Below are positions 1,906 to 3,096 of a stretch of DNA of 64,000 nucleotides, in pieces; positions within the stretch are counted from its first letter, which is position 1, and each line of letters starts with the position of its first letter. The notes under the pieces were generated by a model. That model did no database searches. It saw only the letters and a program-made list of their open reading frames with translations, and was not told the origin of the DNA. The translations under genes and the position numbers were made by a program. This DNA is from an uncultured Bacteriovoracaceae bacterium (GTDB lineage: Bacteria; Bdellovibrionota; Bacteriovoracia; Bacteriovoracales; Bacteriovoracaceae), in assembly GCA_964012805.1 (NCBI GenBank), contig CAXGUD010000002.1, positions 128,001-192,000 of the forward strand, given 5' to 3'.

Positions 1906-3096
1906 ATGAAAAAATTCCATAAATTATTTTTTTTACTTTTTTTCTATATACTCGTTCTCATTAACCCTTTTATTACAAAAGAGTCTTTGGCCAAAAACGA
2001 AAAATTAACAATCTGGATGGGTTCAATGAATATTGAAAACCAAAACTTTTCTCGAGAGGTTATTGGTCAAATGTTCAGGCCGGCCATAAAAACAGAATTA
2101 AGAAAAAGAGGTGAAACTATGGACCTCGGGGAAACTCCATGGCGATATATAGACCTCCTTCCAGATATTATTGTTTTTGCTTGTCAGGAATGTAAACCAA
2201 ATAAATTTTTGGAGTTTCCAGCTGATACTCTAAAAAAAAGGAAGTTTTTGGGAAAATATTATAGAAAGGTAACCTCACAAAAAACTTTTGGGATAACCAA
2301 AATAAAAGGCGGATTAAGCAGCATTTATGTAGGGGTTTTGGCAAAAAAAAGCATCTTTAAAAAAATCAAAAGGCTTAAATACGTAACATCCAGGCGGAAA
2401 TTAAAATTAAAAGGAGCCGTTTTAGTAAAAGTTTCAATCAATAATAGACCCTATGCATTTGGTTCAGTTCATTTAGACGCTTCTTCAGAAAAGAAACGCG
2501 AAGCTGATATAAGAGAAATTTATAACGTACTTAAAGAAGCAGGTTTTCCCAAGACCGTTCTCCTCATGGGTGATTTTAACTATAGGCTTATTAAAGATGA
2601 ATTAGATCCTTTAAAAAACACTGCGGAACACCTTATCGAAGTGCTTTCAAAAGGAAACTCTTCGCTTAGTTTACTAAAAAAAAGAGACTCCCTTGCAATC
2701 TTGCTCAATAAAAATACTAACAAAAGCTTTTCAAGATGGGGTTTTGAAATACCCGAATACACTGTTCCTACCCTTCCCACATACAAAAAGGTTTACAAGA
2801 GCAAGACTGATAAGGCTATATGTAAGTCTTTAGATCGATTTCCAAAAAATAAGGATTTAATAAGGGGCTGCTACTTTAAAAAGGGTAACCCGAAAGAAAA
2901 AAGTTGCTTAAAAGGAAAATGTATAGACTTTGGATGGCTTGACCGGTTGGCCACTTTTGGTGTTGCTTCTCCTTCCTTAATTGGAGGAACTCCCAAAAGT
3001 GAAAAGAAATACCTCAAATTGATTGATTACGGTGGGGCACAAAAAGCATCACTTGGAGACCATGGTGCAATTTGGGCAACTTTTGAATCTTTTTAG
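1906..3096 (+). CDS. Secreted EEP-superfamily phosphatase, inositol polyphosphate 5-phosphatase-like
   Basis: N-terminal signal peptide (..KESLA). Motifs [46 protein letters not shown] occur in the order seen in IPPc 5-phosphatases. Confidence 0.75.

Follow-up and report, generated by a model that had tools for sequence, protein, structure and literature searches.

The gene at positions 1906-3096 on the forward strand of the window (the whole stretch of DNA that was analysed, 64,000 nucleotides) encodes a 396-residue protein, P0001, which is a member of the inositol polyphosphate 5-phosphatase (IPPc) family and matches it far better than it matches other EEP enzymes. Judged by its sequence, P0001 sits in a separate IPPc branch that is marked by a Thr-Lys pair, the motif D-x-G-W-L-D-R and the lack of the 4-phosphate arginine; its catalytic set appears complete in alignment, and 5-phosphatase chemistry overall is predicted with good confidence. 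The host of the gene is a marine member of the Bacteriovoracales. We give an even chance to the reading that P0001 is an exported 5-phosphatase with which the cell feeds on inositides of eukaryotes.

As the sequence-only reading had claimed, the reading frame (ATG to TAG) is real and the quoted IPPc motifs are all present in order: DIIVFACQE ending at Glu95, KG at 169, HLDA at 189, Arg198 and GDFNYR at 222-227, followed in the C-terminal half by RDSL at 260, PTYKK at 291, GWLDRL at 343 and GDH at 384. The gene is present as a single copy in the host genome (G000, 100% complete). Run X5 is not flagged as a source, and its contigs span the junction between the upstream kinase and the gene (800-2029) with zero differences, and they also span the gene-gap junction at 2845-3414; since both junctions are crossed, the locus is not an assembly chimera. 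The GC3 of the gene (0.302) equals the genome mean (0.305) and so gives no indication of a recent arrival. Habitat labels are marine or seawater in 14 of the 19 runs holding this stretch, a 97% identical protein is labelled Bdellovibrionota and one member of the 51% cluster is labelled Bacteriovoracales. Among 41 relatives the gene occurs in two, G000 and G002, the latter being a second Bacteriovoracales genome of the same genus that is 68% complete, and a search with the branch profile (1e-10) found it absent from all others of the 400 phylum genomes. The 23 other PF22669 matches in these 400 genomes were read as generic EEP proteins, the branch profile recovering none of them at 1e-10.

Upstream of the phosphatase gene lies the 3' part of a 909-residue 7TM sensor kinase with a CheA-like ATPase (1-1874, forward strand), and downstream a type I GAPDH gene (3093-4094, reverse strand) is convergent, the two stop codons sharing 4 nt; both are regarded as neighbours only. 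A promoter scan of the locus gave 5 sites against 4.4 expected by chance. It is very unlikely, in our view, that P0001 is a membrane-anchored or periplasmic partner that tunes the sensor kinase, or an inactive binding protein. The two genes are on the same strand with 31 nt between the kinase stop and the phosphatase start, and no terminator-like site was found between them, which would suit a partnership. However, the kinase adjacency is not conserved, because the G002 orthologue has unrelated neighbours (the GAPDH of G002 likewise has others), adjacency of this kind is cheap where the window holds many similar 7TM kinases, and all catalytic residues of the phosphatase are conserved at 50% overall identity. 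Of the earlier proposal that the gene may be co-transcribed with a class III kinase, the 31-nt gap stands and the label 'class III' is plausible from the 7TM sensor and CheA-like ATPase, whereas the functional link is not supported, given the differing neighbours in G002 and the lack of RNA cover over the gene. Pfam, however, gave no match to an Hpt domain in this kinase at E 0.001. RNA run X19 has no listed contig over any part of the phosphatase gene and is uninformative on expression; the lack of RNA cover is also a point against a feeding role.

Pfam, profile and fold searches agree on the IPPc family rather than the ExoIII/DNase/sphingomyelinase type, as had been proposed. PF22669 (IPPc) was matched at 57.3 bits against a cut-off of 27 (E 2.5e-15), whereas the generic EEP family PF03372 stayed below its own cut-off (22.8 vs 24.5 bits). 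A 37-sequence profile compared with solved structures placed SHIP1 (6.7e-30), OCRL (1e-26) and INPP5B (2.8e-22) at the top, and the best non-IPPc EEPs with the same profile were TDP2 at 7e-8 and sphingomyelinases at 1e-5. A six-sequence profile returned weak 5-phosphatase matches only, a single-sequence search of the solved structures with P0001 found nothing and NCBIfam gave no match for P0001. With the AlphaFold model (pLDDT 91), a fold search of 48161 chains put seven 5-phosphatases on top at Z 26.9-29.0, with an rmsd of 2.5-3.4 Å for six of the seven and 8.4 Å for 1i9z because the alignment took in the signal helix; Cimex nitrophorin followed at Z 24.2 and other EEPs reached Z 18.5 at most. 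As 5-phosphatases outrank other EEPs in both profile and fold, neither comparison returned an ExoIII, DNase or sphingomyelinase type as the best match. A generic EEP identity was rejected on these values (Z ≤18.5, profile E 7e-8 or worse); the generic enzymes (sphingomyelinase C, TDP2, ExoIII, CdtB) share the superfold and the G-D-x-N and S/G-D-H core but lack K-G, P-T-Y-K and W-x-D-R, all of which P0001 carries. Fold alone is no proof of activity, because the Cimex nitrophorin shares it under a different function name, and this counts against the feeding role as well.

The active-site residues were mapped by alignment, not by coordinates, onto those listed for Mg, the base pair, the 5-phosphate and the 1-phosphate lysine in a study of synaptojanin (PMC7781601, partial text). 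The residues N42, E95, K169, H189, D223, N225, R227, Y293, K294, D346 and H386 match this set, and the set is invariant in 26 of 26 branch rows. As in synaptojanin, Mg would be held by Asn42 (2029-2031, equivalent to Synj1 N543) and Glu95 (2188-2190, Synj1 E591), all positions here being on the forward strand, and Asp223 of GDFNYR (2569-2586, with Asn225 and Arg227) would act as the general base that activates water. The 5-phosphate would be held by His189 (2470-2472, Synj1 H689), Arg227, Tyr293 and His386, the last being the catalytic His of the Asp385-His386 pair (3058-3063, Synj1 H859), and Lys169 would hold the 1-phosphate.

The surroundings of this set differ from those of the well-known enzymes. 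The eukaryotic 5-phosphatases (SHIP1/2, OCRL, INPP5B, synaptojanin, INPP5E and INPP5K; PF22669) have the fold and the Mg, base and 5-phosphate residues in common with P0001 but are cytosolic, multidomain and carry R-x-P-S/A-W-C-D-R, whereas P0001 is a single predicted-exported domain with I-D-F-G-W-L-D-R in that place (2923-2946, forward strand), a Thr-Lys pair and a cysteine-rich loop. When the motif WXGDXN(Y/F)R is applied, P0001 reads LMGDFNYR with Leu in place of Trp, a Trp that is also missing in 8 of the 14 canonical rows. For P(A/S)W(C/T)DR(I/V)L it reads FGWLDRLA, the Pro being found in 14/14 canonical against 0/26 branch rows. Of the Tyr, Lys and Arg of the 4-phosphate motif, Tyr293 and Lys338 are present and the Arg is replaced by Ile340; Tyr293 and Lys294 belong to PTYK (2776-2787, forward strand). 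Arginine at the W-4 position is carried by none of the 63 branch rows against 13 of the 14 canonical rows, and the branch rows have an acidic residue directly after this position. Thr131-Lys132 (2296-2301, forward strand), which may contact a phosphate, is the signature of the branch and occurs in 26/26 branch rows and in Ati2, an effector of Aeromonas salmonicida, as opposed to 1/14 canonical rows. The lipid-chain loop, Gly/hydrophobic in the canonical enzymes, is replaced by a short polybasic loop (residues 160-168, net +4) followed by Lys169 (2383-2412, forward strand); the mean charge of the same nine residues in canonical enzymes is +0.2, Ati2 is hydrophobic there and the loop is again basic in relatives linked to type VI secretion. 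An enlarged loop (2788-2922, forward strand) contains cysteines 306, 322, 334 and 339, which are kept in the orthologues P0004 and P0006, and in the model it holds helices at 300-308 and 316-323; the four cysteines may form disulfides.

These changes raise the alternative of an active IPPc-fold phosphatase with a rebuilt 4-phosphate pocket that acts on another ring position or another phosphomonoester, which we hold to be improbable. Apart from the lost arginine, the acidic residue beside it and the newly invariant Thr-Lys, it is favoured by Leu168, which stands where canonical enzymes have the 1-phosphate Asn preceding Lys169, and by the report that synaptojanin without this arginine has kcat/KM lowered 900-fold for IP3 and 54-fold for PI(4,5)P2 but barely for PI5P (PMC7781601, partial text). 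Against it, SHIP1 and SHIP2 likewise lack the arginine, the pocket retains Tyr293, Lys294 and Lys338, and Ati2, which has the rebuilt motif, reportedly cleaves the D5 phosphate from PI(4,5)P2 and PI(3,4,5)P3 (PMC4229320, partial text), so that the missing arginine does not exclude 5-phosphatase chemistry. In P0001, Lys132, Lys294 and Lys338 are likely to replace the lost arginine.

The branch itself is wide. Searching 1.84 billion representatives with a profile yielded 52 matches, nearly all with the common signature of G-x-T-K, H-L-D, P-T-Y-K and D/E-x-G-W-L-D-R, and 63 of the 85 collected rows carry G-W/Y-L/I-D-R/Q/N. P0001 scored 203 bits on a branch profile of 33 members, from which its own clade was left out, against 74 bits on a canonical profile of 14. 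A careful tree was built from 40 of the 85 rows, leaving out near-duplicates, fragments, several long branches and the EEP outgroup; it splits the branch from the canonical enzymes at 100/97 and joins P0001 to six transcript-like proteins, again at 100/97. A FastTree of all 85 rows and a quick tree of 48 agree with it. The AU test rejects a grouping of P0001 with the 14 canonical eukaryotic and viral rows (p 0.014). It also rejects P0001 and the other 18 branch rows standing apart from the six transcript-like proteins (p 0.028), a value to be read with care as the first trees were already known when the group was chosen and one of its rows is labelled MMETSP. P0001 is not of the OCRL/INPP5B/synaptojanin type with which the sequence-only reading compared it, given the replaced P-S/A-W-C-D-R motif, the replaced 4-phosphate arginine and the AU result of p 0.014.

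Nine protist-like proteins were collected, three of them EukProt-labelled and the others from short contigs, and a crude rule gives a hydrophobic N-terminus to five of the nine. P0001 is sister to protist-like proteins and not nested among them, so that gene exchange with this sister group is likely on the trees, with no direction given; the sister group is itself a candidate for eukaryotic origin. Viral contigs yielded canonical-type giant-virus enzymes only. Kinship to viral enzymes was considered and dropped: the top Atlas matches are giant-virus clusters, yet the tree leaves P0001 unjoined to them. The canonical-type IPPc genes on the giant-virus or giant-virus-like contigs L050, L052, L056 and L057 form a supported clade of their own. 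A tblastn search of plasmids with P0001 and P0012 gave nothing at E 1, and this search is insensitive, because Ati2, which is present in the plasmid collection, went undetected. A second subclade (P0031, P0033, P0040, P0044, P0048, P0058 and P0061) has a G-Y-L-D motif and lies nearest Ati2 on the tree without firm support; the hydrophobic N-termini of several of its members suggest repeated gains of an export signal.

Bacterial 5-phosphatases are not new, since VPA0450 of Vibrio parahaemolyticus, Ati2 and Plu4615 of Photorhabdus are already described as type III effectors of this activity (PMC3852671; bioRxiv 10.64898/2026.05.26.727984; PMC4229320; each as partial text). Our sequence comparison covers Ati2 (WP_011899436.1) only, and VPA0450 and Plu4615 are likened to it by reported homology. 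The branch is likely, from sequence comparison, to hold Ati2 too. An hhalign comparison of Ati2 with the branch profile gave 99.3% and E 1.5e-20, and Ati2 scored 88.5 bits on the branch profile against 55.1 on the canonical one. SHIP (100 bits) and synaptojanin (94 bits) nevertheless outscore it on the branch profile, so it is assigned to the branch by its motifs, its relative scores and the tree, where the 100/97 split puts Ati2 with the branch, as a long branch whose local place is unsupported, and not as sister of P0001. Ati2 shares with P0001, in register, N, E, T-K, K-G, H-L-D, G-D-x-N-x-R, D-F-G and D-H, as well as the lack of arginine at the canonical 4-phosphate position (Pro321 in Ati2). 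The two are 29% identical over 155 residues only; P0001 has a Sec-type signal and no C-terminal extension where Ati2 has a type III N-terminus with a chaperone, and P0001 keeps W-L-D-R and P-T-Y-K, both altered in Ati2.

This kinship is the ground for a second role, in which the exported P0001 would be an anti-eukaryote weapon that removes PI(4,5)P2 from the membranes of a protist, be it prey, host or grazer, in the manner of the injected VPA0450 and Ati2; we regard it as doubtful. The characterised bacterial members that we found are all injected effectors, which speaks against feeding, and the strongly basic surface of P0001 would suit a membrane target: the mature protein has a pI of 9.9 and exceeds 96% of 1894 similar-sized open reading frames of the genome in basicity. 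A further point in its favour is a 2567-residue protein in the window (36367-44070, forward strand) with SpvB, FG-GAP and RHS repeat matches that resembles a large exported toxin or adhesin. Against it, the hydrophobic lipid-chain loop of Ati2 is basic here, though it is also basic in the type VI-linked relatives, and an enzyme exported by Sec can get to the cytosolic leaflet only if the bacterium enters the cell or breaks it open.

The export signal that was claimed earlier is again predicted. Read by hand, the N-terminus begins with basic residues, continues into a hydrophobic core whose 11-residue Kyte-Doolittle mean is 3.2 and carries S-L-A at 27-29, a layout that is the same in the orthologues P0002, P0004, P0006 and P0007; the predicted Sec signal peptide covers residues 1-29 (1906-1992, forward strand), with a low-confidence linker at 25-29 in the model. 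The cut is likely to fall after Ala29, an uncleaved anchor being the alternative. In G000 the type II secretin is over cut-off, which would serve a weapon as well as a feeding enzyme. The type VI sheath and the phage-type contractile sheath are absent from G000 and G002, and no type III export gate is over cut-off in G000, all of which tells against a weapon; the one sub-cut-off export-gate gene, split across two contig ends, is likely flagellar. A type III effector like VPA0450 or Ati2 was rejected on the lack of an export gate over cut-off, the Sec-type N-terminus and neighbours that are a kinase and GAPDH with no chaperone. Cargo of a type VI or other contractile system was rejected likewise, P0001 having a Sec-type signal and G000 no sheath genes.

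Relatives of the same branch and with the same signatures as P0001 but without a signal peptide were examined in 18 fetched loci (L027-L043 and L045). A type VI gene lies beside the phosphatase in 5 of the 18 (L031, L033, L035, L036 and L040, by Pfam or NCBIfam), a count made on selected neighbours that includes two loci too short to show any and leaves out L032, which has a Clp-type ATPase upstream. In L033 and L035 a DUF4123 gene, which we take to encode a type VI effector adaptor, is directly upstream of the phosphatase. These loci, which add to the case for a weapon, make the type VI-linked relatives a candidate family of anti-eukaryote type VI effectors. The 63 branch rows include 12 proteins from these loci, and a crude rule finds a hydrophobic N-terminus in none of them. 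Five named genomes with signal-less relatives all have a contractile sheath, three of type VI and two of the phage type, the phage-type profile also matching 3 of 14 controls, and none of the five has iolE, a marker of inositol catabolism; this contrast with G000 favours feeding as the role of P0001.

The type VI clusters (L031:6380-10361, L033:141-5177, L035:778-1323, L036:80-11159 and L040:128-607) fall in at least three separate subclades. In L036 two tandem phosphatase copies lie between hcp and vgrG, with no obvious immunity gene of at least 150 residues seen beside them. Two cyanobacterial relatives (L027:65-4925 and L028:84-8076) sit among clustered unnamed genes, of which two encode Peptidase_C70 domains and several share an L-x-L-E-Q-like start at the N-terminus, and both genomes carry a phage-type sheath gene; another relative lies within a different run of long genes without Pfam matches (L034:349-13410). 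These three are possibly cargo loci of a contractile system. A DUF6765 gene is directly downstream of the phosphatase in L042:1835-3352 and L043:1630-2958.

Feeding is also favoured by the inositol metabolism of the host. G000 has a full myo-inositol catabolism cluster (C45:2529-20272) with two iolG, iolE, iolD, two iolC, two iolB, an aldolase and a sugar ABC transporter, and iolG, E, D, C and B are all over cut-off on contig C45. Such a cluster is unusual for a supposed obligate predator. Among the 41 relatives iolE is over cut-off in two, G000 and G002, which are the two phosphatase carriers, and the GH5 C-terminal domain PF18564 is found in the same two; because these are one genus, the co-occurrence of iolE and phosphatase is a single event and not a statistic. 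In the phylum iolE occurs in 3 of 401 genomes, and G132 and G329 have it with the phosphatase gene missing, which weakens the tie. Inositol synthase is absent from G000, so the inositol substrate is likely foreign. A beta-propeller phytase with a hydrophobic N-terminus (16463-17539, reverse strand), present in 2 of the 41 relatives, may be a member of the same inositol-phosphate feeding set as P0001. Against this, it lies 13 kb from the phosphatase and is not an operon partner, the iol cluster is on another contig and neither is linked to P0001, and no phytase was seen in G002 (68% complete). The phytase product is named as Ins(2,4,6)P3, without a 5-phosphate (PMC12406696, partial text), and a direct relay from phytase to 5-phosphatase is accordingly unsupported. 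A PhoD-family match was found in G000, while PTP-like phytase, PhoX and the PI-specific phospholipase C domain gave none there, the last being a further point against feeding. In addition, 5-phosphorylated inositides are minor cell components, and their food value would thus be small; so scarce a substrate fits a signalling or membrane target, as a weapon would have, better than food.

If P0001 is a feeding enzyme, it would be carried by Sec export to the periplasm, or to the outside via type II secretion, with disulfides in the enlarged loop. It would then remove the 5-phosphate from inositol phosphates or phosphoinositides released by algae and protists. The polybasic loop and the pI of 9.9 suggest that soluble polyanionic substrates are preferred, or that docking to membranes is driven by charge. 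Other phosphatases would complete the dephosphorylation, and the inositol would be imported and used as carbon with phosphate as a by-product. Phosphate scavenging and the manipulation of eukaryotic cells were the two roles first proposed for an exported inositide enzyme, and uses of these two kinds remain the best readings.

Elsewhere in the window, a cluster of 7TMR-DISM sensor kinases, two of them with Hpt and ATPase domains, and a CheR-kinase-receiver fusion are found at 5207-11159, 26532-30509 and 45802-55634. SOUL haem-binding, phytoene synthase-like and amine oxidase-family genes and a receiver-MerR protein (56530-57096, 61610-63972 and 11220-12983) suggest carotenoid synthesis.

A literature search for prokaryotic IPPc families and type VI 5-phosphatases, in which subscription journals were thinly covered, returned only type III effectors. 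Our searches turned up no precedent for a form with predicted Sec export, for so broad a branch with candidate members in type VI secretion, for a sister group of protist-like proteins, or for a link to the breakdown of inositol in a genus of the Bdellovibrio group. The small set of bacterial 5-phosphatases (VPA0450, Ati2 and Plu4615) grows into a branch that counts at least 63 sequences, has its 4-phosphate pocket rebuilt and uses several delivery routes, namely type III, candidate type VI and predicted Sec export, and the compact single-domain enzyme offers a way to study how 5-phosphatases work when they lack the arginine credited with positioning the substrate. We can speculate further, at a strength that leaves the idea unlikely, that the genus gave up hunting bacteria and now eats or attacks eukaryotes with a secreted set of enzymes directed at their lipids and inositides, and that the wide, undescribed branch of P0001 is a set of type III, type VI and contractile cargo in many phyla, exchanged with protists and here refitted with a Sec signal. 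A Bdellovibrio-group lineage using eukaryotic inositides would bear on marine inositol-phosphate turnover (PMC12406696, partial text) and on the question whether protists are food for some 'predatory' bacteria.
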